Of a DNA stretch of 38,381 nt, positions 2,621 through 29,807 are shown one piece after another. The DNA comes from a virus (lineage: Duplodnaviria > Heunggongvirae > Uroviricota > Caudoviricetes). Position numbers and translations under genes: made by a program. The stretch is from the IMG/VR virus record IMGVR_UViG_2909303794_000008. The stretch is one strand, 5' to 3'. The notes beneath the pieces were generated by a model that saw only the letters and a list, made by a program, of their open reading frames with translations, did no database searches and was not told where the DNA came from. Within the stretch, counting starts at the first letter, position 1, and every line of letters starts with the position of its first letter.

Positions 2621-2732
2621 AACTGAAGTTGCCCTGAAAATGAAATTTTTTTGCACAACCGCAGAACTTTTCCGCAGGGCATCAGTCTTAATTAGTGCCA
2701 CTGCTTTTCTTTGATGTCCCCATTTTGTGGAG

Positions 2733-2775
2733 CCCATCAACCCCGCCATTTCGGTTCAAGGTTGATGGGTTTTTT
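2733..2775 (+). terminator. rho-independent terminator (probably ybjL, host side of prophage junction)
   Basis: perfect 10-bp stem cccatcaacc(2733-2742)/ggttgatggg(2760-2769) followed by T6 (2770-2775); coordinates anchored on ybjL and ogr stop codons. Confidence 0.55.
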
Positions 2776-2855
2776 GTTGCCTGAAATTTAAGCTGTTTAA
2801 AATCATGATGTTAGAAACACTGTTTTTTAACGATGGCGACAAAATGGCGGCAGCG

Positions 2856-3074
2856 TCAAAGAGAGAGCGCCACCTGTCCTGATTTCATTGGATGCGGCTG
2901 AACCGGATTTGACTCTTTTGGCGTTGCAATCGAACGAACAAAAGTTTCATGGGTAACAAAAGTATGGCTGCAGTTAATGTTCTGGCACTGGTTGTAACGC
3001 TCTTTGGTCAATGAAGATACCTGAAAACTGCTGCGAGTATGGGCGGCACTTCCACACAGTGGGCAAATCATCAT
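2856..3074 (-). CDS. ogr: Ogr/Delta-type zinc-finger late-gene transcription activator
   Basis: MMICPLCGSAAH...CQNINCSHTF C4 zinc-finger pattern as in P2 Ogr; start moved to internal Met (72 aa) to match Ogr length; located just downstream of gene D as in P2. Confidence 0.8.
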   Translation of the reverse strand: MMICPLCGSAAHTRSSFQVSSLTKERYNQCQNINCSHTFVTHETFVRSIATPKESNPVQPHPMKSGQVALSL

Positions 3075-10144: not shown

Positions 10145-10711
10145 TCAGGGAGATTCATTGCTCTTATTTGCCGGAAATTTTCGATAAATGGTAGAAACGC
10201 CTACATCAAAAATCAGTGCAATACGCTGTCTTGATTCTCCGGCCTCGAGTAAACGCCCAATCTGTGCCCACTGTTCGCTGGTCAACTTAGGACGGCGTCC
10301 ACCTACTCTGCCTTTAACACGAGCTGCAGCCAGCCCTGCCCTGGTACGTTCAACTATCAGTTCGCGTTCCATTTCAGCCAGGGCACCCATGACATGAAAA
10401 AAGAAACGGCCCATTGGGGTACTGGTATCAATACTGTCAGTCAGGCTTCGGAAATTCACGCCACGCTGGCGCAACTCTTCTATCAGCGTAACAAGATGCC
10501 GCATACTGCGCCCCAACCTGTCCAGCTTCCAGACAACCAGCGTGTCTCCTGCCGATAGTGTTCTGAGCAGTTTTTTCAGTCCCGGTCGGTCGGACTTCGT
10601 GCCGCTGATTTTATCCTCAAAAATCCGCTCGCATCCTGCGCACTCCAGCGCGTTACGCTGCAATTCCGTGTTCTGGTCATTTGTTGACACGCGTACATAG
10701 CCAATAAGCAT
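10145..10711 (-). CDS. serine DNA invertase (Pin/Gin/Cin/Hin family)
   Basis: MLIGYVRVSTNDQ N-terminus with catalytic Ser, resolvase core and C-terminal HTH; start set to second ATG (10711) with better spacing to the AGGGGG SD; sits 56 bp outside crossover site A. Confidence 0.9.
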   Translation of the reverse strand: MLIGYVRVSTNDQNTELQRNALECAGCERIFEDKISGTKSDRPGLKKLLRTLSAGDTLVVWKLDRLGRSMRHLVTLIEELRQRGVNFRSLTDSIDTSTPMGRFFFHVMGALAEMERELIVERTRAGLAAARVKGRVGGRRPKLTSEQWAQIGRLLEAGESRQRIALIFDVGVSTIYRKFPANKSNESP

Positions 10712-10766
10712 GAGCATCCCCCTGAATAAAAACCGGAGATGATGCCAGTTGCCCGTTATCTCTGCA

Positions 10767-10792
10767 TTTTCATAAACGTTGGTTTGGGAGAA
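10767..10792. repeat. invertase crossover site A (gix/pix-like, 26 bp)
   Basis: ttttcataaacg-tt-ggtttgggagaa; its reverse complement matches site B in 15 contiguous bp (CTTCTCCCAAACCAA). Confidence 0.7.
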
Positions 10793-11152
10793 GCGGCAAA
10801 ACGGGATGTGGGGACAGGGGAAAATCAGATACCGGATATCTCCAACTTTCCATTTACAAAAAACAATCCTCTTAATTTTGAGTTACCAGGAGGATTAATT
10901 CTGAAAGCCGGGTATGGAAAGCTGACAACGCAGTCCAGTATCTGGATTAATTTCCCTGCAGCATTCCCTAATGACTGTATTGCCGGAGGAGCTTTAAGTG
11001 CGGAAGAGAACACAAATGACTATGTATTTGCTCAAACTACATCACGCAAAGCAGGAGGATTAACTCTGGCGTTTTATCGTGGGGGCATTAGTCAGCCACC
11101 AACAGCCAATTCCAGAGAACTTTCTTTCTCGTGGTTTGCGATAGGATATTAG
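10781..11152 (+). CDS. alternative tail-fibre C-terminal variable domain (silent orientation; would fuse to H after inversion)
   Basis: the codons GGT TTG GGA GAA (GLGE) are in frame at both crossover sites, so inversion gives an in-frame H constant-variable fusion; the track ORF 10739-11152 starts outside the segment. Confidence 0.6.
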   Translation, partial: GLGEAAKRDVGTGENQIPDISNFPFTKNNPLNFELPGGLILKAGYGKLTTQSSIWINFPAAFPNDCIAGGALSAEENTNDYVFAQTTSRKAGGLTLAFYRGGISQPPTANSRELSFSWFAIGY

Positions 11153-11153
11153 A

Positions 11154-11594
11154 ATGAGAATTTTTTTCAGTGCATCAACATTGTGGTTTTATGATGAAAC
11201 TCGCAAAGAAGAATATCACAACGGTATTGGATGGCCAGATGATGCTATCGAAATATCAGATGATGAATGGAATAAATATACGCAAATTCCTCCTGATGGT
11301 TTTATATTAGGTGCCACCTCTCAGGGAAGACCTGCATGGATATTAATATCTCCGCCAGATAAAAAAATGGTTATGGATATTGCTGAAACTAAAAAACAGC
11401 AGTTAATTAGCCAGGCCAATGAATACATGAACAGTAAACAATGGCCCGGTAAAGCCGCTATTGGTCGTCTGAAAGGCGAGGAACTGGCGCAATATAATTT
11501 GTGGCTGGATTACCTGGACGCACTGGAGCTGGTTGATACCTCCAGTGCTCCAGATATTGAATGGCCTACGTCTCCGGCAGTTCAGGCCAGATGA
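11154..11594 (+). CDS. tail fibre assembly protein (alternative copy, Tfa')
   Basis: 146 aa directly after the alternative fibre end; C-terminal LDYLDA...DTSSAPDIEWP motif shared with G. Confidence 0.7.
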   Translation: MRIFFSASTLWFYDETRKEEYHNGIGWPDDAIEISDDEWNKYTQIPPDGFILGATSQGRPAWILISPPDKKMVMDIAETKKQQLISQANEYMNSKQWPGKAAIGRLKGEELAQYNLWLDYLDALELVDTSSAPDIEWPTSPAVQAR

Positions 11595-12168
11595 CATCCG
11601 GCGCTGTGCTGGTATCTGTTGCCGTCACCGCGTCAATGTAATCCAGCACAGCGTTAAGCCGGGTTGTTTCTGCCTGCGTCAGTTTACGTCCGGCCTGCAA
11701 TTTCAACTGAATCAGACTGACGGAAGCCATTGCTGCATCAATTAGTGGCTGGCGCAGTGCTTCTGCCGCGTCTACTGCGGCATTATGCTGTGCCTCAGTA
11801 TCTGTCACCCATTTCTCACCATCCCATTCATCGTATGGCGTTAACGGAGCGATAGTGGTCGTATTTTCATGATAATCACCCGGACCTGTGATTTCTTTCG
11901 ATTCTCCTGTTTCGGTGCTATAAACGATTTCACCGCGATGGTCTGGCACATATTCCCATGAGTTTAAATCCATCGAACGGCAGATAGCATAACCCGCCTT
12001 ATGTGTGCCAGGGGCATCTAAACAGGAATATGCAGGGATACCGACACCAATGGCAAGATATTCATTTGAAGTGGAAATATATTCCCGAGTTTCACCATCA
12101 TAGTTATAGACGGTAATATTCCCCGCCTTCGTGGCAATAAGCTCGCTATTTAATACGGCGTTATCCAT
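11566..12168 (-). CDS. G: tail fibre assembly protein G (active orientation)
   Basis: 200 aa directly after H (1-nt TAATG overlap); C-terminal LDYIDA...DTSTAPDVIWP motif. Confidence 0.8.
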   Translation of the reverse strand: MDNAVLNSELIATKAGNITVYNYDGETREYISTSNEYLAIGVGIPAYSCLDAPGTHKAGYAICRSMDLNSWEYVPDHRGEIVYSTETGESKEITGPGDYHENTTTIAPLTPYDEWDGEKWVTDTEAQHNAAVDAAEALRQPLIDAAMASVSLIQLKLQAGRKLTQAETTRLNAVLDYIDAVTATDTSTAPDVIWPELPET

Positions 12169-13667
12169 TATGCAGCCCTCACGATATAGTTAAATGCAAT
12201 ATTTCGTGGACGGGTTTCACTCCCGCCGGGGAGCTGAAAAGCGTTGATAATCCCACCGCTTGCCTGACTTATTCCATCCGTGTACAACCCGCCACCGGCA
12301 CTGTCGCTGAGTGCAAATGTTTTTGATGGTGAACTGTTTGAAGCTGGCCCCCAGTATTTTAATGCGAGCTTTCTGACTTCATCACTCTGAATACTCAATA
12401 AAGCACGCCCTGTATCAATGCCGCGCCCATCATCCCAGCCACGAATAAACTCACCACGTAAATCAGGCAATTTATTTGTCGGATAAGCCTTTGCCAGTTC
12501 CGGGTATTCTTCAGCAGAAAAAGCTGCACCGTTGCATTTCAGCCAGCCTGTCGGCGGAGTGGCTGAAGGCCATGGAACAGGGACACCAACAGGTAATGCC
12601 GAACCTTCTCCCAAACCAAGGTATGTGAGAAGACCAGCTACATCCTTTCCACTCAAATTAGTCAGCGTATTGTCCAGCGGTTGTTTACCTGCCAGTGCAT
12701 TAAGCATTGTCGTGGCAAAGTTTGGGTCATTCCCCAGCGCCGCCGCCAGTTCGTTCAGTGTATCCAGTGCCGCAGGTGCAGAACCTACCATTGCCGCAAT
12801 CGCCGATTTCACAAAAGCCGTAGTGGCAATCTGTGTATTGTTGACCGACTGTGCCGCAGTAGGTGCTGTTGGCGTTCCGGTGAGTGCCGGACTCGACAAC
12901 GGCGCTTTCAGTGCCAGCGCATTGTTAATGGTGGTACTGAAATTCGGATCATTGTTAATGGCTGCGGCTATTTCTTTTAGCGTGTCCAGCGTGGCTGGAG
13001 CACCATTAATAAGGGCCGTCAGTGCCGCCTGAACAAACGCGGTGGTCGCAACCTGCGTGGTGTTATTCCCTGCCGCTGGCGTTGGCGCTTTTGGTGTCCC
13101 GGTAAACGTCGGACTTTCTTTCTGTGCATACTGTGAATGCGGGTCCGGTGCGGCAAGATGTTTTGCCATCTGATCATCCACGTACACCTTCAGCTCCAGT
13201 ACCTTGTCATCCACATACTTGCGGGTTGCCAGCACTACGGCAGGGTCGATTTTCAGGGTGATATTGTCCGTGCTGCTGGTAATCAGCACCATGCGCACGG
13301 TCTGGGTACGCCCGCTGCCTTCAGCCAGTTGCGGTTTATAGCTTTCCGGGCAGTTCCCCACGGCAATCAATGCCCCTGACTCATCAAACAGGCCCACTTC
13401 ACGTATCCACCAACCGCCCTCGTTTTCAGGGATCACCTGTTCAGCAATAATCTGGCTGCTGTTCTGCGGGTCGATATAGAGCATATTCAGCGCAGCCCGG
13501 CGTTTCTCATTTACCAGTGCCGTCTGCTTTGCGTCCGGCGTCGGCAATGCTCCGCCGCCATCGCCCACCGCCATATGGGTAATTTTTAGCGGCACACCGA
13601 GCGCGGCGGCGCTGGCAAGTTTCGCCGCGCCAATATCCGTCAGCAGGGTATAAAATTTTGTGCTCAT
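12168..13667 (-). CDS. H: tail fibre protein H
   Basis: 499 aa with conserved N-terminus and repeated Ala/Thr-rich segments; crossover site B lies at codons 351-354. Confidence 0.9.
   Translation of the reverse strand: MSTKFYTLLTDIGAAKLASAAALGVPLKITHMAVGDGGGALPTPDAKQTALVNEKRRAALNMLYIDPQNSSQIIAEQVIPENEGGWWIREVGLFDESGALIAVGNCPESYKPQLAEGSGRTQTVRMVLITSSTDNITLKIDPAVVLATRKYVDDKVLELKVYVDDQMAKHLAAPDPHSQYAQKESPTFTGTPKAPTPAAGNNTTQVATTAFVQAALTALINGAPATLDTLKEIAAAINNDPNFSTTINNALALKAPLSSPALTGTPTAPTAAQSVNNTQIATTAFVKSAIAAMVGSAPAALDTLNELAAALGNDPNFATTMLNALAGKQPLDNTLTNLSGKDVAGLLTYLGLGEGSALPVGVPVPWPSATPPTGWLKCNGAAFSAEEYPELAKAYPTNKLPDLRGEFIRGWDDGRGIDTGRALLSIQSDEVRKLALKYWGPASNSSPSKTFALSDSAGGGLYTDGISQASGGIINAFQLPGGSETRPRNIAFNYIVRAA
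12606..12631. repeat. invertase crossover site B (inside H)
   Basis: ttctcccaaacc-aa-ggtatgtgagaa; inverted copy of site A; resembles gix-type half sites. Confidence 0.7.
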
Positions 13668-15516: not shown

Positions 15517-16091
15517 ACCGGGCCTCCGGTTGTATCGCCGCCTTTCAGGACGCCAGTATGCTGATGCGCATCAACCACGATCCCGTTAGAACTCATCGCT
15601 CCGCCGCCCTGGGTAACGCCACCATTGATCACCACTTCGCTGTTAATGCGCGTGTGGTCAGCCTCCAGTACAAACTCACTGGTTTTCATGGTGATGTTGT
15701 CAGCGGCCTCAATGACCATTGATTTGATGCCCCTGACATACCAGCGCCCGGTGGCGGGTTCGTATTCAAACCAGCCACCGTCAGGATGTTCTGTCACGCA
15801 GGCGTCCGCCGACGTCGACGGTGGCGCGAACTGATTCGAATAGATGGCGGGTAACGCAAAGGCGGTTTCCAGATTGCCGCCCAGACTCAGCAGCACCACC
15901 TGCTCACCTTCCGATGGTCGCCACCATGTGCGGGTATTCCCGGCACGCAGCGTCAGCCAGCTGATCCAGTTGGTTTCAAGCTCGCCCGTTTTCACCCGGC
16001 AAAGCCAGTTTTCCCTGTCCACTTCGGTGACTACCCCTGTGCGGATCAGGTTGGTGATAAGGCGCATGATTTCGGTTAATTGTGCGTTCAT
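15513..16091 (-). CDS. V: baseplate spike/assembly protein V
   Basis: 192 aa; N-terminus MNAQLTEIMRLITNLIRTG resembles P2 gpV; ATG at 16091. Confidence 0.85.
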   Translation of the reverse strand: MNAQLTEIMRLITNLIRTGVVTEVDRENWLCRVKTGELETNWISWLTLRAGNTRTWWRPSEGEQVVLLSLGGNLETAFALPAIYSNQFAPPSTSADACVTEHPDGGWFEYEPATGRWYVRGIKSMVIEAADNITMKTSEFVLEADHTRINSEVVINGGVTQGGGAMSSNGIVVDAHQHTGVLKGGDTTGGPV

Positions 16092-16137
16092 AGGGAAAGG
16101 TTGCCATCAGGGGAAGAAAGGCGGCAGTGCTGCAACT

Positions 16138-16155
16138 TGTATCAGTGCTGATACA
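16138..16155. promoter_or_regulatory. TGT-N12-ACA dyad (Ogr-type activator site) upstream of V
   Basis: tgtatcagtgctgataca, nearly perfect palindrome in the S-V gap; centre ~55 bp from the V ATG. Confidence 0.5.
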
Positions 16156-16159
16156 AAGA

Positions 16160-16606
16160 TCACCCCGCCAGCCATTGCAGAATCATGTCGCGGGTCATTG
16201 CCTCAACATCATCATTTACACCCAGCAGGCGGCGCTCTGCGTAACGGACCTCCGGTCCTTTGCGACTGACGCGATCACGCAGGCCGTAATGGTGAACACG
16301 GGCAATACGCTGCACCTTGCCTTCAAACTGTACGCTGGCAGAGTCGGCGCTGGCGGCAGTTTTCAGGTATTTTGTGGTGCGCAGCTTTGCAAACATCTGA
16401 CGTTTGATGCGCCCCTTCTTGCTGCGTGCTGTTACCCTGCGCGGTTCATAACTGCTGCCATCTGGATTGCGCTGCATCCTGATATTCTGCTGCTGTGTCC
16501 GGCGCAGTTCCTGCACCAGCTGGCGCATCATGCGGCTTCTCGTGGCTGGTTCCAGATTCGCCAGCAAGGCACTCAGCCAGTCGTCCACCTTCTGCAGTTC
16601 AGCCAC
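16160..16606 (-). CDS. S: tail completion protein S
   Basis: 148 aa; P2 order R-S-V. Confidence 0.8.
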   Translation of the reverse strand: MAELQKVDDWLSALLANLEPATRSRMMRQLVQELRRTQQQNIRMQRNPDGSSYEPRRVTARSKKGRIKRQMFAKLRTTKYLKTAASADSASVQFEGKVQRIARVHHYGLRDRVSRKGPEVRYAERRLLGVNDDVEAMTRDMILQWLAG

Positions 16607-17051
16607 GTTTCACCGTCCACATTTCTTCAGGTTCATCGGGTTCTGCTACAGCTTCAACGCTCGACACACTGCCGTCAGTGCTGACCAGCACACGTTCCGT
16701 CAGTTGCAGGTTAAGGCTGATATCACAGACATCGTTGCGCAAAATATCCACATCAAAGGTGAATAGCTTTTCCCGTAACGCCGGGTTATTGATGGCATCG
16801 GGCTGGTTATCCCGAAGCCACAGTAAAACCGGGGCCATCAGCAGATTCTGGTCGCCGCTGAAATCCTCTATCACCACGTTCAGGGTGTAGCGGTACTCCC
16901 ATGACATGGAGCTGGCCCCCGTGGCAACCAGCGAACCGTTATCCACAAACAGATGCAGTTTGTCCGGGTTATTGCGGACATAAGGCACCGCTTTATTGAG
17001 GGCGTGGCGCAGGGATTGTGGTTTGTTCACTGTTTCGCTCCTGACACGCAA
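16599..17051 (-). CDS. R: tail completion protein R
   Basis: 150 aa; follows the lysis genes as in P2. Confidence 0.8.
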   Translation of the reverse strand: MRVRSETVNKPQSLRHALNKAVPYVRNNPDKLHLFVDNGSLVATGASSMSWEYRYTLNVVIEDFSGDQNLLMAPVLLWLRDNQPDAINNPALREKLFTFDVDILRNDVCDISLNLQLTERVLVSTDGSVSSVEAVAEPDEPEEMWTVKRG

Positions 17052-17283
17052 TAATCATGTCCACTTTGTCTGCACAGACCGCCCAGGCGGCCTCCGTTTC
17101 ATCCAGCAACGCGTTCAGGTCACCGTTAGTGCGCGGCGCTGCCTGCCCCAGCCGACACGGCGTCACTCGCGGACAACCACTGACGGTAAGCTGCACCTCC
17201 GGTGAGTGTGGGGCGTTCCCGCAGCCGGATAATGTCAGCAGGCAAAGGAGTATCAGCCCAGCGGCGTAAATCCTCGTTCTCAC
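16993..17283 (-). CDS. lysC: LysC-like outer-membrane lipoprotein (Rz1-like spanin component), nested out of frame in lysB/R
   Basis: signal peptide plus lipobox LTLSGC near the N-terminus, Pro-rich body; start codon not verified. Confidence 0.5.
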   Translation of the reverse strand: MRTRIYAAGLILLCLLTLSGCGNAPHSPEVQLTVSGCPRVTPCRLGQAAPRTNGDLNALLDETEAAWAVCADKVDMIIACQERNSEQTTIPAPRPQ

Positions 17284-17554
17284 GTTTCAGTTCCTCAATC
17301 CGGTGTTGTCGTTGTCTCAGTAGTGCGCTGGTCTGTTCTGCGTCGGCATAGAGTCGCGCCTGCTCCCGGTTGTTGGTTTCTGTCAGAATGGACAGGCTGA
17401 TAAGCTGGCTGTTGCTCTTTGCCAGTGCCTGGCTTTTGCTCTGCAGCTCATCTGCCTGCGTGCTGATGGTCTGGCTGGCATCAGCCAGCCGCCACGTCTG
17501 CCAGCCCAGCGCCGCCAGTAATAACGCCAGCACAACCAGCAGCAACCGGTTCAT
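17126..17554 (-). CDS. lysB: LysB-like (Rz-like inner-membrane spanin component)
   Basis: 142 aa, N-terminal TM helix then coiled coil. Confidence 0.7.
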   Translation of the reverse strand: MNRLLLVVLALLLAALGWQTWRLADASQTISTQADELQSKSQALAKSNSQLISLSILTETNNREQARLYADAEQTSALLRQRQHRIEELKRENEDLRRWADTPLPADIIRLRERPTLTGGAAYRQWLSASDAVSAGAGSAAH

Positions 17555-17928
17555 GCTGCTACCTGTTGCGCCATCTGATTACGGGTGTTCCAGAAGGCAA
17601 TAACGGTCAGTAGATAAAAGACCAGGGTAAGAGCCCACCCCGTCCAGGCGAGACTGACGACAATCAGCAATCGCATCATCCAGCTGATAAATACGTTTTC
17701 TTTTCGGGTAATTGTCTTCAGCAAAGATGCCCTCAACTCCTGCCAGAGCGGGCCGTTCTTAATTAACGCAGCCAGTGATACCGGAATTACTGCCCATGTC
17801 AGCAGACAGGCTACCCAGACACCAGATGCTGCCAGTACCGGAAAAATCCCCTGCGGATACACCATTGCGGCGATTAACAGCGCTATCCATAACATCAGAA
17901 ACAGCCCGCTGATTACTTTCTTTTTCAT
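17551..17928 (-). CDS. lysA: LysA-like membrane protein (lysis timing)
   Basis: start set to ATG at 17928 (MKKK), one nt after the K stop and preceded by GGGAG; multi-TM. Confidence 0.6.
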   Translation of the reverse strand: MKKKVISGLFLMLWIALLIAAMVYPQGIFPVLAASGVWVACLLTWAVIPVSLAALIKNGPLWQELRASLLKTITRKENVFISWMMRLLIVVSLAWTGWALTLVFYLLTVIAFWNTRNQMAQQVAA

Positions 17929-17929
17929 T

Positions 17930-18442
17930 TCAGTTTGCTCCCTGTAAGCACCAGGCCATCTCCCGCGCACGGCGGTTATCCAGCCCCTGATTAAACACAC
18001 CTTTTACATACACCCAGCGCGGCAACTGTCGGCACGCATCCGCCCAGCGCCGCTGATTGAGCAATTTCACCAGCGTGGAACTGCAGGCATTGCCCGTACC
18101 CACGTTGAAGGCAAACGACACCGCAGCGTCATACACCTTCTGCGGCGGCTGTTGCTTCACACACCTTTCCAGCGCCCGCTCCACACGCAGCACGTTGGAG
18201 ATCAGCCCTTCTGCTGCCTGTCGCTCCGTAATGGTTTTGCCGGGAATGACGCCCGACGTATTACCAATGCCGTCGGTCCAGACACCCGCGCTGCACTGAT
18301 ACGGCTGCAGACGACAACCTTCGTAATCGGCAATCAGTTTCAGCCCTTCCACGGAGGTGTGAAGCTGCTGAAAACCCGGCAGCGTGGCAGCAATAGCCAG
18401 CACGGCCCCGACAAGGCAGCGTTTAACGATTGATGGATTCAT
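17930..18442 (-). CDS. K: endolysin (lysozyme-like, with N-terminal hydrophobic signal-anchor-like segment)
   Basis: 170 aa; EGxxLxAYxD...GVWTDGIGNT lysozyme-type motifs; N-terminal LVGAVLAIAATLPGF. Confidence 0.8.
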   Translation of the reverse strand: MNPSIVKRCLVGAVLAIAATLPGFQQLHTSVEGLKLIADYEGCRLQPYQCSAGVWTDGIGNTSGVIPGKTITERQAAEGLISNVLRVERALERCVKQQPPQKVYDAAVSFAFNVGTGNACSSTLVKLLNQRRWADACRQLPRWVYVKGVFNQGLDNRRAREMAWCLQGAN

Positions 18443-18638
18443 AGTCCTCCCGCGAGATCTGCCCGTCGCGCAGAAGCTGGTAGGCTTTGTGTTTGTAGTA
18501 CCAGTTGATAGCCAGCATCAGCACACCGATCATCAGGCCGCCCAGCGTTGAGGCATCCTTGATGGACAAATCGCCCAGCCAGGCCAGCACGACGGCGATG
18601 CAATACGTGATAAAGGCGCTGATTCGCTCAAGCGTCAT
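18423..18638 (-). CDS. putative holin (small two-TM protein with charged C-terminus)
   Basis: 71 aa, two hydrophobic segments, Lys/Arg/Asp-rich tail; sits in the holin position between X and K. Confidence 0.5.
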   Translation of the reverse strand: MTLERISAFITYCIAVVLAWLGDLSIKDASTLGGLMIGVLMLAINWYYKHKAYQLLRDGQISREDYESINR

Positions 18639-18641
18639 AAT

Positions 18642-18845
18642 TCAGTCCCATAGCTGGACGGTCTGCACGGTGGTGGTTGTCGGAATGTCCGGCAGCTCCA
18701 CCTGCAGCCCGTGAGGTAAAAAGGGGCCGTATTCGGCAAGCCCCGGATTTGCCTTCAGTACCTGCTCCGTGACACCCTGCGTGCGCCCGTAATGACGCCA
18801 GCAAAGTGCGTCCACCGTGTCATACTGATGCGCACGCACTTTCAT
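18642..18845 (-). CDS. X: tail protein X
   Basis: 67 aa; size and position match P2 gpX. Confidence 0.8.
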   Translation of the reverse strand: MKVRAHQYDTVDALCWRHYGRTQGVTEQVLKANPGLAEYGPFLPHGLQVELPDIPTTTTVQTVQLWD

Positions 18846-19309
18846 CAGATAAGCTCCACTGTGCAGTGCGGCGCATCCTGCACCCGGCTGATGGCCCAGC
18901 GGGCGTCACGCCATAAATCACCGCTTGCTTCCGCCAGTTCCTCGCCTCGCTTCGCACCGGATGCCGTGGCGTCATAGTCCTGGTAACGTTCGTTGAGCAT
19001 GGCGCGTGCCCAGCAGTAAACCGCGTTGAAATAGTGCTGAATGCGCTCGCTTTTGCCGTCCAGTTGTTCCGCCGGGACTTCTGCCAGCGAGGCATACCCC
19101 AGCATCTGCTGGCGTCTGCGAAACTCATACAGCTCTGCGTTGACCTCCGAAATTGCCGACAGGGCAACCTGTTTTAAACGCGGCTGCGTCACCGTGCCGT
19201 CAGTGCGCATCACACTGCGAAACTCCGACAGGTCCACATCAGGCCAGAACGGCGTATTCCTGATGATTTCCGCCTGTTCCGGTGCCTGTTCTGGCGCAAC
19301 AAACTTCAT
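18845..19309 (-). CDS. L: head completion/stabilisation protein L
   Basis: the track ORF starts at GTG 19372; ATG at 19309 with GGAG SD is preferred; alternative start is 19372. Confidence 0.75.
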   Translation of the reverse strand: MKFVAPEQAPEQAEIIRNTPFWPDVDLSEFRSVMRTDGTVTQPRLKQVALSAISEVNAELYEFRRRQQMLGYASLAEVPAEQLDGKSERIQHYFNAVYCWARAMLNERYQDYDATASGAKRGEELAEASGDLWRDARWAISRVQDAPHCTVELI

Positions 19310-19404
19310 GCTGCTTTCTCCTGAAATAGAGGGCGGTGGACGGGGTTTTGATGTGGCAGTGCCTTTCGCCACCCCGTGCCGCCCGTGCGCGGGGGCACGT
19401 TCTG

Positions 19405-20055
19405 TCAGCGGCTGTCATTGCGCAGTCTGCGCTCCAGCTGCTGTTTGTCTTTTTTCACGCCACAGCGGGGATCGAGCTGTAACGCATGGTTGAGATGATT
19501 AAGGGCAGACGCCGGATTGCTTTCACTCAGGACAGCGCCAATCGCTTTATGCAGACGCGCCCGTGACTGGTCCGGCATATCCATACCGTCTGTCAGCTCC
19601 AGGGTCTGCAGCAACAGATCGGCATCAAAACCGGTGGCGGCAAGCATTGCGCTCTGGGCTGCATCTGCCATTTCCTCTGCCAGCACGGTCTGCACGTTGC
19701 GGTTACCTAACGGCATCACCCAGCCATGACGCAGGGCGTGACGCCCGATCTCCAGCGCCCCGGCATAATCTCCGGCATCAATGCGCCACAGCATCACGTA
19801 CATCAGCACGTCATCCTGTTGAGCGCCTCCGGCAGCCAGGACACCCTCCGCCCAGGCGGCGTACTTCGGCAGCAGCTCCACCTTGATTTCCGCTTTTTTG
19901 ACCGTGGACTGAACGCCCTTGAGACGGCGGCGGTCTTCCGCCAGTTGCAGCAGCATCAGGTCATAGCCCGACGCGTGGCGAACGCTGCCGCCCTCGCGGG
20001 CGGCCTGTTCAGCCTGAACGCGCAGGCGATGCTGCCGTGCGGGACTCAGGCTCAT
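19405..20055 (-). CDS. M: terminase small (endonuclease) subunit M
   Basis: 216 aa; ATG at 20055; resembles P2 gpM. Confidence 0.8.
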   Translation of the reverse strand: MSLSPARQHRLRVQAEQAAREGGSVRHASGYDLMLLQLAEDRRRLKGVQSTVKKAEIKVELLPKYAAWAEGVLAAGGAQQDDVLMYVMLWRIDAGDYAGALEIGRHALRHGWVMPLGNRNVQTVLAEEMADAAQSAMLAATGFDADLLLQTLELTDGMDMPDQSRARLHKAIGAVLSESNPASALNHLNHALQLDPRCGVKKDKQQLERRLRNDSR

Positions 20056-23876: not shown

Positions 23877-24901
23877 TGGGAAAGAGTAAGAAAAACCGCA
23901 CTGCGGCGACGAATCAGATCCAGCATAAAAGCCAGACTTCAGCCGAAGCATTCAGCTTCGGTGATCCCGTTCCTGTACTTGACCGCCGCGAACTGCTGGA
24001 CTATGTGCAATGCGTACAGACAGATCGCTGGTATGAGCCGCCAGTGAGTTTCGACGGTCTGGCTCGCACCTTCCGCGCCGCCGTGCATCACAGTTCCCCG
24101 ATTGCAGTAAAGTGCAACATTCTGACCAGTACCTATATCCCTCATCCTCTGCTCAGCCAGCAGGCTTTTTCGCGTTTTGTGCAGGACTATCTGGTATTTG
24201 GCAACGCCTATCTGGAGAAACGCACGAACCGCTTCGGTGAAGTGATCGCCCTTGAACCTGCGCTGGCAAAATACACCCGACGCGGATTAGACCTGGATAC
24301 CTACTGGTTTGTGCAATACGGTATGACAACCCAGCCGTATCAGTTCACGAAAGGCAGCATCTTTCATCTGATGGAACCGGACATCAACCAGGAGATCTAC
24401 GGCCTGCCCGGTTATCTTTCTGCCATTCCGTCAGCCCTGCTCAACGAGTCCGCCACGCTGTTCCGCCGAAAGTATTACATTAACGGCAGTCATGCTGGCT
24501 TCATCATGTACATGACCGATGCTGCGCAGAACCAGGAGGATGTGAACAACCTCCGCAACGCAATGAAAAGCGCCAAAGGTCCAGGCAACTTCCGCAACCT
24601 GTTTATGTACTCACCTAACGGCAAAAAGGATGGTCTTCAGATTATCCCGTTGTCAGAAGTCGCGGCAAAGGATGAATTTCTGAACATCAAGAACGTGAGC
24701 CGGGATGACATGATGGCGGCACACCGCGTGCCTCCACAAATGATGGGTATCATGCCGAATAATGTTGGCGGGTTTGGGGATGTGGAGAAGGCATCCACGG
24801 TTTTTGTACGTAATGAATTAAAGCCTCTTCAACAACGAATTAGAGAGGTGAACAATTGGCTACATGATGACGTAATAAAATTCCAAGATTACTCCTTGTA
24901 A
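23876..24901 (+). CDS. Q: portal protein Q
   Basis: ATG at 23876 overlaps the P stop (TGATG); the track start 23873 is TTG; P2 gpQ-like. Confidence 0.9.
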   Translation: MGKSKKNRTAATNQIQHKSQTSAEAFSFGDPVPVLDRRELLDYVQCVQTDRWYEPPVSFDGLARTFRAAVHHSSPIAVKCNILTSTYIPHPLLSQQAFSRFVQDYLVFGNAYLEKRTNRFGEVIALEPALAKYTRRGLDLDTYWFVQYGMTTQPYQFTKGSIFHLMEPDINQEIYGLPGYLSAIPSALLNESATLFRRKYYINGSHAGFIMYMTDAAQNQEDVNNLRNAMKSAKGPGNFRNLFMYSPNGKKDGLQIIPLSEVAAKDEFLNIKNVSRDDMMAAHRVPPQMMGIMPNNVGGFGDVEKASTVFVRNELKPLQQRIREVNNWLHDDVIKFQDYSL

Positions 24902-24904
24902 TTA

Positions 24905-24942
24905 AAGCCTCTTCTTTAGAAACCCATCCAAAGAAGAGGCTT
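24905..24942. terminator. 13-bp perfect inverted repeat between convergent Q and NTase genes (bidirectional terminator-like hairpin)
   Basis: aagcctcttcttt(24905-24917)/aaagaagaggctt(24930-24942), 12-nt loop; no clear U-tract. Confidence 0.4.
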
Positions 24943-24953
24943 ATTGCCACCCG

Positions 24954-25271
24954 TTATATACCACATACAAAATTGATCTTAACGCTTTTATCAACAACAA
25001 GCAGAGAAGTGCCAACAGACTTAATAAATCCCAGTTCATACTCTTCTGAATGCGTCATTGTAATAATATGAACAGGAACAAATAAATCAAGCTCCCGCAG
25101 CTTTCGCTTCAATAATAAACCATCGACACAATCACCTATCACAAGCATATCAATATCATTTGCATCGCAAAAACTCTTTAATGCTGACCCAAATACATAT
25201 ACATCCACCATATATAAACTATGATGGATAATAACATCACAGATCGATTCAATCGTATGTTTAAAATTCAC
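24954..25271 (-). CDS. minimal nucleotidyltransferase (Pol-beta superfamily, MNT-like)
   Basis: 105 aa with the GS-X9-DID motif (VYVFGSALKSFCDANDIDMLVIG); GTG start overlapping the upstream TAG stop by 1 nt; AT-rich. Confidence 0.6.
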   Translation of the reverse strand: MNFKHTIESICDVIIHHSLYMVDVYVFGSALKSFCDANDIDMLVIGDCVDGLLLKRKLRELDLFVPVHIITMTHSEEYELGFIKSVGTSLLVVDKSVKINFVCGI

Positions 25272-25930
25272 TACCGTGAAATTCTTCGTAATAAATCACC
25301 CAACTTGTAAAGCTCCACCCCGATACTTTGAGCAGCCTCTTTTGCCTGAGTCGTCAATCGTCCATTAGGATTGGAGGAAAAAACAACATCACAATTGCCA
25401 TGCAACCCTATCGCATCTCTTACAGAACCCGCTGTCATATCATAATCATTCGCAGCGATAATAACTAAGTCCGCCAAGCCACGTCTTTTAAGTCTATATT
25501 TTTTGTTGGTTTCTCGCTCTACAGAGCTTACATGTGAATGTTGATTGAACACTCTATTTATAAACAAATGCTCTTTATCAAGATGCTCAAGCGGATTATT
25601 AGCTCTTAAAGAAGATGCAATATGCCCAAATGAACCCACTCCTATTTTCTTTTGTTCTAGTAATCTCATTGCATCACCAGAGATAAATTCAACACCTCCC
25701 TTGACTGATAGAAAATCAATTTTTTTATTGTCTAGGTATTCATTTATCTCAGGACATGTTATCCGGCCAGTATTGATTGCCCCGATCAAATAGGTGTCAC
25801 CCTGTGTAGTATTAATCACTAAAGTACCATCACCTATCACCTCTATATTTTCGACACATTTATTTTCTTGTAATTTTCCTGCCATCCATGAAATATAGCC
25901 TTCACTCGCATTTATGCTCATTGGATTCAT
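25271..25930 (-). CDS. hypothetical protein, middle gene of three-gene cargo operon
   Basis: 219 aa; ATGA overlap with the upstream gene and 1-nt overlap with the downstream gene; no domain recognised with confidence (weak Rx6H HEPN-like motif RANNPLEH). Confidence 0.5.
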   Translation of the reverse strand: MNPMSINASEGYISWMAGKLQENKCVENIEVIGDGTLVINTTQGDTYLIGAINTGRITCPEINEYLDNKKIDFLSVKGGVEFISGDAMRLLEQKKIGVGSFGHIASSLRANNPLEHLDKEHLFINRVFNQHSHVSSVERETNKKYRLKRRGLADLVIIAANDYDMTAGSVRDAIGLHGNCDVVFSSNPNGRLTTQAKEAAQSIGVELYKLGDLLRRISR

Positions 25931-26622
25931 CCTATAAATAGTTCAGATGCAGCTTCTGGAAACCTACTACCATTAGCATCGGTTAAGCCCAAATGTTTTG
26001 ATTCAAAGTCATCTATATGAACACAAAGCTTTGAAAAAACATTCTTCTCATCTTCACTCATGAGGTGATAGTTTTGTTCAACCAGTCGCTGTACTTTTCT
26101 ATTGTTGGGTAAGATATGAGATTGTACTTTTCTTAACCATACTTCTGCATTTGGATTTTCAGGGTCAACGCTGTTCTCTTGGGTTGGTCCATATGTTACA
26201 AAAATGGTATTGTTTTCTCTGAAGTATTTTTCTAACTCCTGTCTAACAGATTCTCGATTGTCATATGTTTTAACACCAAAGGTTGCATTTATTTTATCAA
26301 TATGGCCGTTTTTCCAAGAACGGATAATTTCATCAGTAAAATGTTCCTCTGCCTTATCAATTGTCGTATGGCAATTAGCACATAGAAGAATAATGTTGTC
26401 AAAATGACCTCTCTGCTCATCAGTTAGATCAGCATTGGTTCTAGGTCCATTATCAATGGCACTAAAAATGTGAGCAAGTTCTCCAATTGTTATATTTTTG
26501 TCGCCAGCATCAACAAACAAAGGTTGCAAACATTGTGGATTTTGGCAAAAGCCACCTGAGCTGGCAAAAAGCCGTCTAACTGTATTAGCGTTTGGAGAAG
26601 CTTTTCCCCTACTGCAAGCCAT
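25927..26622 (-). CDS. HNH endonuclease-domain protein
   Basis: 231 aa; CQNPQC...GELAHI...N...LLCANCH (HNH with zinc-binding cysteines); ATG at 26622 with AAGG SD. Confidence 0.65.
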   Translation of the reverse strand: MACSRGKASPNANTVRRLFASSGGFCQNPQCLQPLFVDAGDKNITIGELAHIFSAIDNGPRTNADLTDEQRGHFDNIILLCANCHTTIDKAEEHFTDEIIRSWKNGHIDKINATFGVKTYDNRESVRQELEKYFRENNTIFVTYGPTQENSVDPENPNAEVWLRKVQSHILPNNRKVQRLVEQNYHLMSEDEKNVFSKLCVHIDDFESKHLGLTDANGSRFPEAASELFIG

Positions 26623-26710
26623 GAACTAACCTTAAAAGTATAGAAATTAGGATGTTAATTTATTACTGAACAACCCTATAAGCAAGCTTGCTAATTGTGG
26701 TGAGCGCGCG

Positions 26711-26729
26711 CTCGTATCCCCGCCACGCC
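26711..26729 (-). other. putative cos (cohesive-end) site
   Basis: minus strand reads GGCGTGGCGGGGATACGAG followed by CGCGCGCTCAC; the first 13 nt match the P2/186 cohesive end as I recall it (GGCG[A/T]GGCGGGGAAAGCA[C/T]); lies in the intergenic gap between the two cargo clusters. Confidence 0.35.
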
Positions 26730-26914
26730 TGCCCGCTTTATGTAGCGGTTTTCATGCAGGCGCATGATCTACGCAAAATCCCACCAGTTCTGGCGTGCCT
26801 TAGCAAAAACGATCCGCAAACGATCATGCGATCTCATGCGGCATAGTCATGCACTTACGGGGGAAGTGAAATCCCGTAACCGAATGACCGCTTGAAAAAC
26901 AAAACTCTCGTTTT

Positions 26915-26949
26915 TATAAAGCACAAAGTCCGCTTTGAGCAAAGCGGAC
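26915..26949 (-). terminator. rho-independent terminator downstream of the KAP NTPase gene
   Basis: stem gtccgcttt(26928-26936)/aaagcggac(26941-26949) followed on the minus strand by TTTGTGCTTTAT. Confidence 0.5.
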
Positions 26950-27014
26950 GTTAATAATTTTACTGACTATCCCTAGTACTTCTAATAATATTGCCTATGT
27001 TAATCAACAAAAAG

Positions 27015-28907
27015 TTAATCAGTTCCCTCAGTAAAGAATTTGATTGCGCTAGTTAGTACATAGTCAATAAAAAACTTTACGTGAAAAACCTGAAAGGAGT
27101 TATTGGCTGCGTTTTGAGTGAAATCTACAGCTATCTCTTTTAGGTTAATCAACCAGTTGTATTCTTCGGTCAGTCTGGTTCTAGCATCCCCATCAGAATA
27201 ACGATTCCGCAAGCTAAATGCCAGTTTCCTCATGAGGACTGGGTCAAGTTTCCTATAGCTTTCAATGAAAACTTCAGGAGGAACCAAGTGTAAAAAAGGC
27301 ACGTTATGAAGATTTAACTGCCTATTATTAGAATGACTCAATTCAGATACAAACGATAAGTTTCCCCTTTGCAACTCATCGCTGAACTGCAACGCAAATT
27401 CCGGAATTGATTCATCAAACCGTTTCTTCTTCGCTATCTCAATATGCTCAATAATGAGTTTGAATTCATCGCTATCCCTGTCAAGAAAACCAAAGCCACG
27501 CCATGCCCTTAATTCGTTATAATGCGTTTGCGCATATTCCTTATGTATATCTTCAGCTCTAAGTCTATTATAATAATTATTTATATTCTGTTTTGTCTCA
27601 TTTATGAGATCATGAACATCATCTGTTGTTAGACCTTCTTTCGCCATGTCCAGCAAAATACTCGCGGTCATCAGGAGTTCACCTAAGGAAGTGATCTTAC
27701 CTGAAAATAGATTATCCTTGGCAATGGCGTACTGCTCATTAAGCATAGTTTCATTAAGTTCTCGATAGTTCCACAAATACTCCCATGCTTGGGCATCGGT
27801 GCTTCTAAAAAATCGCGTAATATCCAACTGAGCGAGAAGTTCACTCGTTACCTTTCCATCACAGATTAGCTCCCTCCAGTACGCACCATCCAGTAACTTC
27901 TCGGTTAATACAGGAGATGAATATTTCTCGACGATCATGTCATACTTAGTTTTGGTACGCTCTTTACCTAAAAACATACCATAATTAACATTGCTGATTG
28001 AATCGAAATCCTCGTAGTTAAGGTTCCCTCCCCGGTACTCTATCGAGAAAATTAACAACTGCTGGAAAAATACCCTCATAAAATCGTCGTTGCTGACATA
28101 TTTATTTCCCAAAAGGGAAATGATGCGTTGTACATCAAGAAAGAACTGCCTCAAGTGTCTTAGATTATTATATTTCGCCGACACATAGATGTCTTCTATG
28201 GCCTGCATATCTTCTTTAAATATATTAGCAACGTGTAAACTGCTAATTACGCCCAAAAAAACATTACAAGCACTATGTAAATCTGACGTTACTTCAAATG
28301 TTTTACCAACAAGCTTTTCTTTTGTTCTCATGTATTCGCTGCTAGATTTCTCGTCATCATTATTTATTCGCTTTTCTCTATTGATTATTTCTTCTTCATT
28401 GGCAACCAAGATCGCTTTGTATCCGTTTACTTCTACAAAGTGGTTTATATATCCAAATAAAATTGGTAAATCTATACCAGCTCTCTCGATATCATCAAAG
28501 ACCAGCACAAAACCATCTGGTTTTCTACTAAAATCGTTAAGATTAATGGTGGGAACATTGGTATTGACATCAACGTCAGATTTATTATCGCCATTGAGAT
28601 CGATCTTGAAAGTAGCCTTAAGCGTATTTTTTAGTACATTTGCACCAAAGATAAGGGCTTTGTTTGATAGGACAGGATGAAGTTGACGATAGAACTCATC
28701 TTCAATCTGCTTAATAGAGTTGACGCCATACAAACTCACTTTTAGAAATTTAAACTCTGAATTCTTCTGCTTATATTCTTCAAGAACTTGTTCAATGAAC
28801 CAAGTTTTACCTGATCCCCAAGCACCTTTAAGCATAATGGCGTATTGAGGTTCAGTTGTAAGGCTAAGGTAATATTCTATATAGTCTTTGATGTACGTAT
28901 TGTTCAT
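27015..28907 (-). CDS. KAP-family P-loop NTPase
   Basis: Walker A GAWGSGKT near the N-terminus and Walker B-like VLVFDDIER about 100 aa later; start set to ATG 28907 (the track start 28958 is TTG); AT-rich. Confidence 0.7.
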   Translation of the reverse strand: MNNTYIKDYIEYYLSLTTEPQYAIMLKGAWGSGKTWFIEQVLEEYKQKNSEFKFLKVSLYGVNSIKQIEDEFYRQLHPVLSNKALIFGANVLKNTLKATFKIDLNGDNKSDVDVNTNVPTINLNDFSRKPDGFVLVFDDIERAGIDLPILFGYINHFVEVNGYKAILVANEEEIINREKRINNDDEKSSSEYMRTKEKLVGKTFEVTSDLHSACNVFLGVISSLHVANIFKEDMQAIEDIYVSAKYNNLRHLRQFFLDVQRIISLLGNKYVSNDDFMRVFFQQLLIFSIEYRGGNLNYEDFDSISNVNYGMFLGKERTKTKYDMIVEKYSSPVLTEKLLDGAYWRELICDGKVTSELLAQLDITRFFRSTDAQAWEYLWNYRELNETMLNEQYAIAKDNLFSGKITSLGELLMTASILLDMAKEGLTTDDVHDLINETKQNINNYYNRLRAEDIHKEYAQTHYNELRAWRGFGFLDRDSDEFKLIIEHIEIAKKKRFDESIPEFALQFSDELQRGNLSFVSELSHSNNRQLNLHNVPFLHLVPPEVFIESYRKLDPVLMRKLAFSLRNRYSDGDARTRLTEEYNWLINLKEIAVDFTQNAANNSFQVFHVKFFIDYVLTSAIKFFTEGTD

Positions 28908-29221
28908 TTTTAGTCCATTTTGATAAAATACATAAACATAGATGGTAAGTAGAGCCAAAGGCCAACTATGGAAAATTCAATCGGTAGTGTACATTGTAAG
29001 GTTATTATTAGTAAATTTTATAGAAATGCCCATAATCTTACAAAATTCAGATTATCCGTTGCGAATTAGTCTGCCATTCGTTAATTAACGAAAGTTAGCA
29101 GAAGAAACGTTTGCATCTTGCACAAAGCAGACGATCATTTATCAAAATGACCTTACACCTTATTTCACTCGTTGCCCAAACTAGCCCCCATCAGAATGAA
29201 TCCTCCTGGGGGCAACGTTTC

Positions 29222-29455
29222 TTAATGCAGCCAGCTGTCGTCTTCCCACACCTTCTGCATAATTTTCATCACTTGTTTTCTTTCTTCGTCCAGTTGCAGT
29301 CCGGTCAGTTCCACACCGTTAGAGCTACCTTTGCGGATACGAATTACCGTTTTGGGATACAGGGGGCGCAGATTGCGGTAAAGCTCGGATTCAAGGGCGT
29401 CCAGTGTAGACTGGCTAATCTTCTGCTCTTTATCGATCATTATTTCAATGCGCAT
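29222..29455 (-). CDS. dinI: DinI-family protein
   Basis: 77 aa starting MRIEIMIDK and ending WEDDSWLH, resembling DinI; GAGGTG SD; the track ORF is longer through an upstream in-frame extension. Confidence 0.7.
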   Translation of the reverse strand: MRIEIMIDKEQKISQSTLDALESELYRNLRPLYPKTVIRIRKGSSNGVELTGLQLDEERKQVMKIMQKVWEDDSWLH

Positions 29456-29465
29456 AAAAGTCACC

Positions 29466-29654
29466 TCAGCTGATGACATCCATTGAGCGGTTGTATTCGT
29501 GGCTTCTGATTTTTGCCATGAGTTCATCAGTCAATTCAGAAACCCACTGCAGAGCCAGCCCCTTCTCTTCATCACTACACTCACTAGCCGCTACAAGCTT
29601 AAGAAAAAAATCAATGCGCTGGAGCTTCAAAGACTCCAAAAAATAGTCCTGCAT
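29466..29654 (-). CDS. small SOS-regulated protein (possible Tum-like antirepressor)
   Basis: 62 aa, ATG at 29654 with GGAGG SD, about 40 bp downstream of a LexA box; function inferred only from context. Confidence 0.4.
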   Translation of the reverse strand: MQDYFLESLKLQRIDFFLKLVAASECSDEEKGLALQWVSELTDELMAKIRSHEYNRSMDVIS

Positions 29655-29695
29655 CTTTCCTCCTATGACACCACACGCAATGCTGTACGCATAAC

Positions 29696-29715
29696 CACTG
29701 TTTATATTTACAGTA
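29696..29715. promoter_or_regulatory. LexA operator (SOS box)
   Basis: CACTGTTTATATTTACAGTA = CTGT-N8-ACAG with an AT-rich spacer, 19/20 to the consensus TACTGTATATATATACAGTA. Confidence 0.75.
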
Positions 29716-29807
29716 TATAATAATCTTACTGATGTAAAACGTTTTTTTACGCTTATCAGCCTGATATGCCTGGTATTATTAAGAGCACGAATTGTTAGCC
29801 AGCGTAA

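Follow-up and report, generated by a model that had tools for sequence, protein, structure and literature searches.

A lysC-type spanin gene, predicted to encode an outer-membrane lipoprotein, across the lysB/R boundary of a P2-like prophage of Escherichia coli

Does a 96-codon reading frame that lies across the boundary between lysB and R in a P2-like prophage encode a lipoprotein and, if it does, where does its translation begin and to which class of spanin does its product belong? An earlier note, made from the letters of the sequence, had placed a lipobox-containing gene at this position, nested out of frame in the 3′ part of lysB and reaching into the start of R. We examined the locus within the window, by which we mean the whole stretch of 38,381 nucleotides in IMG/VR record IMGVR_UViG_2909303794_000008. 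The window consists of E. coli chromosome (grxA, ybjM, ybjL and the RybB sRNA) and then a P2-like prophage with its late genes on the minus strand. Our answer is that the reading frame is almost certainly lysC, the o-spanin gene of a P2-like prophage (Peduoviridae, of the Elveevirus/Felsduovirus type) lying by ybjL/rybB in the E. coli chromosome, as judged by comparison with related sequences.

The genes of the lysis region are, in the order in which they would be transcribed:

18642..18845, minus strand: X
18423..18638, minus strand: holin of the HP1 family (PF16080)
17930..18442, minus strand: lysozyme, P1-Lyz-like (PF00959)
17551..17928, minus strand: membrane protein in the position of LysA (family searches, PGAP)
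17126..17554, minus strand: lysB, the i-spanin, with a transmembrane helix at the N-terminus and a coiled-coil region in the periplasm (TIGR03495, PHROG 89)
16993..17283, minus strand: putative lysC coding sequence, for an o-spanin/outer-membrane lipoprotein precursor, of 96 codons plus TAA (ORF list, NF038368, PF23793, PHROG 952 and 456)
16599..17030, minus strand: R, tail completion protein, with a GTG start at 17030 behind AGGAG (Pfam PF06891, P2_Phage_GpR, 163 bits; same coordinates in PGAP)

The gene order, holin-endolysin-lysA-like-lysB-lysC-R-S-V-W-J, is that of P2-like phages. The putative lysC begins with GTG at 17283..17281 and ends with TAA at 16995..16993 on the minus strand, so that the earlier note had located the 96-codon frame exactly. 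Its nesting also held. The frame is offset by +1 from lysB, and R is offset by +1 from it in turn, which means that the three frames of the minus strand are each used one after the other. The overlap with lysB is 158 nt and that with R is 38 nt, and the gene runs 133 nt past the lysB stop (stop at 16993 as against 17126). We found no support for an internal promoter or terminator serving lysC, as matches to the consensus over 15900..19500 were no commoner than in shuffled sequence. Within and around the gene, the following features on the minus strand are used below:

17292..17296, minus strand: Shine–Dalgarno-like GAGGA, 8 nt upstream of the GTG, within lysB codons I-E-E (read from the sequence)
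17287..17289, minus strand: in-frame TGA bounding the lysC frame, two codons 5′ of the start (translation)
17281..17283, minus strand: putative lysC start GTG, made from LysB codons Arg91-Glu92 (C-GTG-AG), the only canonical start before the lipobox
17224..17283, minus strand: predicted signal peptide, codons 1–20 (MRTRIYAAGLILLCLLTLSG), with two Arg in the n-region and a core of mean Kyte–Doolittle value 2.7
17221..17232, minus strand: lipobox L18-S19-G20-C21, with the Cys21 codon at 17221..17223 (strict lipobox match)
17126..17283, minus strand: putative dual-coding stretch of 158 nt, LysB residues 91–142 and LysC residues 1–53 (diversity, dN/dS)
17031..17125, minus strand: lysC-only stretch of 95 nt from the lysB stop to the R start, LysC residues 54–84, predicted helix (codon-position variation)
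16993..17030, minus strand: lysC tail of 38 nt, residues 85–96 (SEQTTIPAPRPQ), overlapping the first 12–13 codons of R (substitution pattern)

The first point to settle is whether such a frame means anything at all. It could be a chance, untranslated alternate-frame ORF with a fortuitous lipobox, the 95 nt between lysB and R then being intergenic spacer. In this GC-rich window, with its many spurious ORFs, alternate frames are often open for ∼100 codons, and a loose PROSITE-type lipoprotein pattern matched 9 start/ORF combinations in the window as against 3.1 ± 2.0 in shuffled sequences, some of the matches being antisense of hydrophobic segments. Because such ORFs are common and the pattern occurs 9 times where shuffles give about three, length and lipobox by themselves are not significant, and we rejected them as sole evidence for the gene. 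The family searches and the comparative evidence, however, take lysC far beyond chance. The product matched the NCBIfam equivalog NF038368 (P2_Rz1, ‘Rz1-like lysis system protein LysC’) with 124.8 bits against a cut-off of 27 (E = 1e-36), ORF residues 5–88 aligning with positions 2–85 of the 85 in the profile. Pfam PF23793 (LysC) gave 56.1 bits against a cut-off of 27, and PHROG 952 and 456 (‘Rz-like spanin’) also matched, with a PHROG E-value of 1e-29. The neighbours fit this assignment: the partner LysB is a TIGR03495 equivalog (173.5 bits vs 92.75) and R belongs to P2_Phage_GpR. The suggestion in the earlier note of a P2 lysB/lysC-type, Rz1-like lipoprotein gene is thus borne out by the family profiles.

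Relatives of LysC were found by tblastn in 276 phage records, in P2-like phages of Escherichia, Klebsiella, Salmonella, Yersinia, Pseudomonas, Burkholderia, Shewanella and Aeromonas, with protein identities of 94–96% for Cartapus and KP12, 77% for Fels-2, 55% for phiCTX and 41–42% for P2. Over its 2.2 kb, the lysis region matches that of E. coli L725 (NZ_CP036202), where the genes are annotated lysC/lysB, with 100% identity, and that of a set of Peduoviridae phages of Klebsiella and Escherichia with 97%; of 5426 complete E. coli genomes, 1057 contain the lysis cassette. For the comparative analysis 115 loci were gathered from phage records, GTDB genomes and IMG/VR, and selection and retention were assessed on 76 distinct sequences that are gap-free between the start of lysB and the stop of R. 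The lysC start codon is kept in all 76 and the full-length ORF in 72; in the remaining four, the tail is shortened by 1 or 10 codons. ORF and start are retained down to 76% nucleotide identity, across phages of gamma- and beta-proteobacteria. Against a chance ORF, then, stand the profile E-values and the universal retention of the start, and of the antisense ORFs in this DNA most are interrupted, or without their start, in the divergent relatives.

Those antisense ORFs, on the plus strand at 16996..17205, 17057..17269, 17202..17351 and 16953..17054, gave no Pfam match above threshold, and as genes they were rejected. One of them, the 70-codon 17057..17269, lies across the lysB/lysC overlap; among 12 divergent relatives its frame is uninterrupted in 11 and its start retained in 9. 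As it has no family match, the simplest explanation of the open frame is that double constraint on the other strand keeps it so.

The variation among the 76 sequences changes along the locus with the frames in use. DNA that is lysB only has a diversity of 0.156, peaking at the third positions of lysB. In the lysB/lysC overlap the diversity falls 2.5-fold, to 0.062, and dN/dS is 0.37 in the lysB frame and 0.52 in the lysC frame as against 2.74 in the unused frame. These values indicate that the overlap is true dual coding. The lysC-only stretch 17031..17125 has a similar diversity of 0.063, distributed as 0.122 at the third positions of lysC vs 0.037 and 0.030 at the others, and a dN/dS of 0.14 in the lysC frame with 1.25–1.6 in the two other frames. 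Since its variation peaks at lysC third positions, this stretch is coding DNA in the lysC frame and not the spacer that the chance explanation calls for, and we regard the probability of that explanation as negligible. Finally, in the 38-nt overlap of lysC with R, where the diversity is 0.060, dN/dS is 0.04 for the R frame as against 2.77 for that of lysC. This run is constrained by R only, so the last ∼12 residues of LysC are probably dispensable, in keeping with a tail that differs in length and sequence among relatives.

With lysC as the preferred reading, the next question is where it starts. The N-terminus of the 96-residue product reads MRTRIYAAGLILLCLLTLSGC, and the cleavage context would be MRTRIYAAGLILLCLLTLSG|CGN. 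A positively charged n-region is followed by a 12-residue hydrophobic core, and the lipobox LSGC fits both the strict and the PROSITE-type lipoprotein rules. The lipobox (LTLSGC) reported in the earlier note is therefore part of a textbook lipoprotein signal, MRTRIYAAGLILLCLLTLSG|C, with a canonical L-S-G-C, and a lipobox-containing product with a usable GTG upstream of it is what the sequence offers. Between the upstream TGA and the lipobox, the minus-strand frame of lysC contains no further ATG, GTG or TTG. RNA structure round the start is not significant (fold z = 0.2), and the Shine–Dalgarno-like motif and the GTG are unpaired in the centroid.

The position of the start is conserved. In an alignment of 17 diverse P2-like LysC sequences, gap-free for ∼85 columns, the lipobox Cys is preceded, at a distance of exactly 20 codons, by an ATG or GTG in 17 of 17, and the ATG of P2 (MKTKIFAAG...) aligns with GTG 17283 (MRTRIYAAG...). 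The comparison with P2 LysC proposed in the earlier note thus came out in its favour, the first ∼85 residues being gap-free with P2 and 15 other P2-like phages and the start being in register. GAGG or AGAGG is found at the same site in most relatives and is weaker in the Burkholderia and Rosenbergiella loci. Residues G9, L15, C21, C37, C43, N53, C70 and Q81 are invariant in the 17 sequences, C80 and G54 (which forms an NG motif with N53) occur in 16, and all of these are found in the protein of the window. Part of the conservation of the signal peptide, which lies in the lysB overlap, could stem from constraints on LysB.

Public annotations place the start elsewhere. On DNA that is 100% identical, RefSeq/PGAP gives lysC as 16993..17241, beginning at the CTG of codon 15 (17241) with the product ‘LLTLSGC...’. 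Post-lipobox ‘o-spanins’ of 38–57 aa are annotated in P2 NC_070905, Midge, EtG, KP12 and ST13-OXA48phi12.1, the shortened lysC of KP12 being 57 aa, and in the PhiBP82.3 record the ‘o-spanin’ likewise starts after the lipobox. Fels-2 lysC is annotated from an ATG two codons downstream, and the gene is absent from the annotation of Cartapus, YenM_42.18 and LPM4. Among the loci that we gathered, mis-annotated lysC occurs at L001 (1994..2242) and also at L002, L003, L005, L007, L009, L011, L012, L014 and L015. Taken at face value, the PGAP coordinates and the several phage records that start after the lipobox would suggest that lysC is real but starts downstream of the GTG, at CTG 17241 or beyond the lipobox, and hence does not make a lipoprotein. 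The CTG, however, is non-canonical and leaves just six residues before the Cys, so that the n-region and h-region are lost and the signal peptide is removed. The NF038368 profile aligns from residue 5 of the 96-aa product, every one of the diverse relatives has a canonical start 20 codons before the Cys, and residues G9, L15 and C21 do not vary. In addition, wrong or missing o-spanin starts are a documented annotation artefact: among 528 systems, 196 o-spanins were unannotated and 64 had wrong starts (Kongari et al., PMC6139136). We consider a downstream start very improbable. The conserved canonical codon, the Shine–Dalgarno-like motif, the intact signal peptide and the alignment of the NCBIfam profile lead us to favour GTG 17283 as a better lysC start than the RefSeq CTG, and this also answers the call in the earlier note for a check of the actual start codon.

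Turning to the class of spanin, the earlier note had described an Rz/Rz1-like embedded arrangement of the P2 lysB/lysC type. The P2 lysB/lysC type stood, whereas the label ‘embedded’ did not. ‘Embedded’ is kept for lambda Rz1, which is wholly inside Rz, and P2 LysB/LysC is the paradigm of the ‘overlapped’ two-component spanin (PMC6139136). Because the gene here reaches 133 nt beyond lysB, it is ‘overlapped’ and not ‘embedded’. Besides this overhang, the locus has the adjacent i-spanin, the holin and endolysin cassette and the periplasmic cysteines of the overlapped class; lysC is not wholly within lysB, and the lambda Rz1 family was not reported for the ORF in a Pfam scan at E ≤ 0.01, which gave PF23793 LysC alone.

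The closest likeness is to P2 and its relatives. Markov et al. are said to have identified P2 lysC in 2004. Its start is inside lysB, in the +1 frame, and its stop is within R (PMC3091744). In both P2 and the window the protein has 96 aa, the overlap with R is 38 nt, the start lies inside lysB in the +1 frame, the signal peptide has 20 residues with Cys21 as the residue that would be lipidated, and C37, C43, C70, C80 and the NG motif are present. The two differ in the start codon (ATG in P2, GTG here), in the lipobox (CAGC in P2, LSGC here) and in the extent of the lysB/lysC overlap, which is ∼146 nt in P2 (start 901, lysB end 1046) and 158 nt here. The cassettes differ too, P2 having Y and K where the window has the HP1-family holin and the P1-Lyz-like lysozyme. 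Cartapus (Elveevirus), the Klebsiella Kp48xx/KP12 group and Fels-2 (Felsduovirus) have the same 158-nt and 38-nt overlaps, the GTG and the GAGGA, and their LysC proteins show a few substitutions relative to that of the window. Lambda Rz1 shares the functional logic of LysC: the i-spanin gene has in its +1 frame the start of a gene for a small lipoprotein of the outer membrane, and the two genes come last in the lysis cassette. The Rz1 of the lambda-like phage KS5 is short and proline-rich, with a 46-aa mature protein of 26% Pro (PMC3091744), and in lambda Rz1 C29 is the sole periplasmic cysteine (PMC6139136). In contrast, the mature LysC of the window would be 76 aa long with 10.5% Pro, its periplasmic cysteines number four, and a helix is predicted towards its C-terminus.

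The following sequence of events can be proposed, largely by analogy. Ribosomes would start lysC at GTG 17283, behind GAGGA, in the +1 frame of lysB, and the precursor would be exported by Sec, as in established lipoprotein biology. Bacterial lipoproteins are matured by Lgt, LspA and Lnt and sorted by the Lol system according to the ‘+2 rule’. By the same route, Cys21 would be diacylglycerylated, the signal peptide cut by signal peptidase II and the Cys N-acylated, and the Lol pathway would then bring LysC to the inner leaflet of the outer membrane. Delivery to the outer membrane is predicted since the +2 residue is Gly (Gly22) rather than Asp. There, from what is known of lambda Rz/Rz1 and from P2 lysB/lysC genetics, the 76-residue mature LysC may form a pair that spans the periplasm with LysB, an inner-membrane protein of type II whose periplasmic domain would be a coiled coil. 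LysB indeed has a single hydrophobic segment, at residues 4–20, followed by a weak coiled-coil-type Pfam match over residues 23–98. It contains no cysteine, and LysC has four in the periplasmic part (C37, C43, C70 and C80). The presence of at least one periplasmic cysteine for intermolecular disulfide linkage is described as a rule for spanins (PMC6139136), and by analogy the LysB–LysC complex could be stabilised covalently by homotypic disulfides formed by the four conserved cysteines of LysC. Once the holin and endolysin had removed the peptidoglycan, the complex would disrupt or fuse the outer membrane and release the virions; in lambda, both Rz and Rz1 are required for disruption of the outer membrane (PMC6139136). 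If the analogy is a good guide, this disruption probably takes place by fusion of the inner and outer membranes.

We infer the contact between LysB and LysC and the pattern of disulfides, since the structure search found no solved LysC structure (the LysB matches being chance coiled coils, E ∼0.8) and the AlphaFold2 single-sequence model of LysC was poor (pLDDT 58, pTM 0.38). The model predicts just the helix of the signal peptide and, with low confidence, a helix at residues 56–87. A more speculative reading, which we put forward tentatively and hold to be rather doubtful, is that the LysC family works unlike lambda Rz1. Disulfides of four invariant periplasmic Cys would lock LysC, as an o-spanin with a partial fold, opposite the Cys-free LysB; the functional core would end near Q81, and the last ∼12 residues, since they evolve as R alone requires, would be a dispensable by-product of reading into R.

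Whether lysC is active in its present host depends on the state of the prophage. Many P2-like prophages of E. coli are not spontaneously inducible, and the window stops at the integrase stop, its last feature, with attR outside. It might therefore be that lysC is intact but sits in a defective, non-inducible prophage, and hence has no present function in the host. However, every ORF of the window for lysis, head, tail, replication, repressor or integrase is full length, and lysB, lysC and R are under purifying selection across relatives. We think a defective prophage unlikely, and this explanation bears on the activity of lysC and not on its identity.

Several further features of the prophage were observed. 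At its other end, the RybB sRNA gene (2700..2778, plus strand; Rfam, 105 bits) adjoins an ogr-like gene (2856..3074, minus strand), which puts the prophage end just past the 3′ end of rybB. In the lysis cassette (17930..18638, minus strand), which is not P2's own, the lysozyme has a Gly/Ala-rich, weakly hydrophobic N-terminus (MNPSIVKRCLVGAVLAIAATLPGF). The homologous endolysin of Fels-2 is annotated as similar to P1 Lyz and that of Midge as a SAR endolysin; the cassette may be a pinholin/SAR-endolysin system. A serine invertase (Resolvase and HTH_7; 10145..10717, minus strand) adjoins opposed ORFs for a tail-fibre C-terminus and assembly (10739..11594, plus strand, and 11566..13667, minus strand), and the whole of 10145..13667 looks like an invertible host-range segment of the Gin/Cin type.

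The prophage is otherwise near-identical to that of L725, and it differs in a cargo segment at 24900..29800 (minus strand), from the portal gene to replication gene A. The segment holds ORFs at 27015..28958, 25927..26622 and 25271..25930 (minus strand), and its content includes a KAP-family P-loop NTPase (PADLOC candidate PDC-S49, 532 bits) and an HNH-like endonuclease-domain protein (PDC-M68A, 101 bits); a 219-aa ORF of the segment was without matches. It is likely that this is an anti-phage defence hotspot. Between the CI repressor and the integrase, 35590..37266 (plus strand) encodes a 558-aa DUF4041 and T5orf172/MUG113 protein that matches the PD-Lambda-1 defence family with 400 bits.

As a gene, then, the feature is already known: it is an ordinary lysC, and identical DNA carries that name in RefSeq. 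Its value as a discovery is small, the P2-like lysB/lysC pair being the textbook ‘overlapped’ spanin architecture. For annotation, the start that we favour, GTG 17283, would restore a 96-aa lipoprotein precursor, and shortened gene models, from which the signal peptide or the lipobox is missing, would mislead automated searches for spanins or lipoproteins. The gene also provides a clean, small example of three regimes within one reading frame, namely dual coding with lysB, single coding, and an apparently unconstrained tail over R. If LysC were indeed disulfide-locked in the manner tentatively suggested above, the family would represent a distinct mechanistic sub-type of two-component spanin and not a simple analogue of Rz1.
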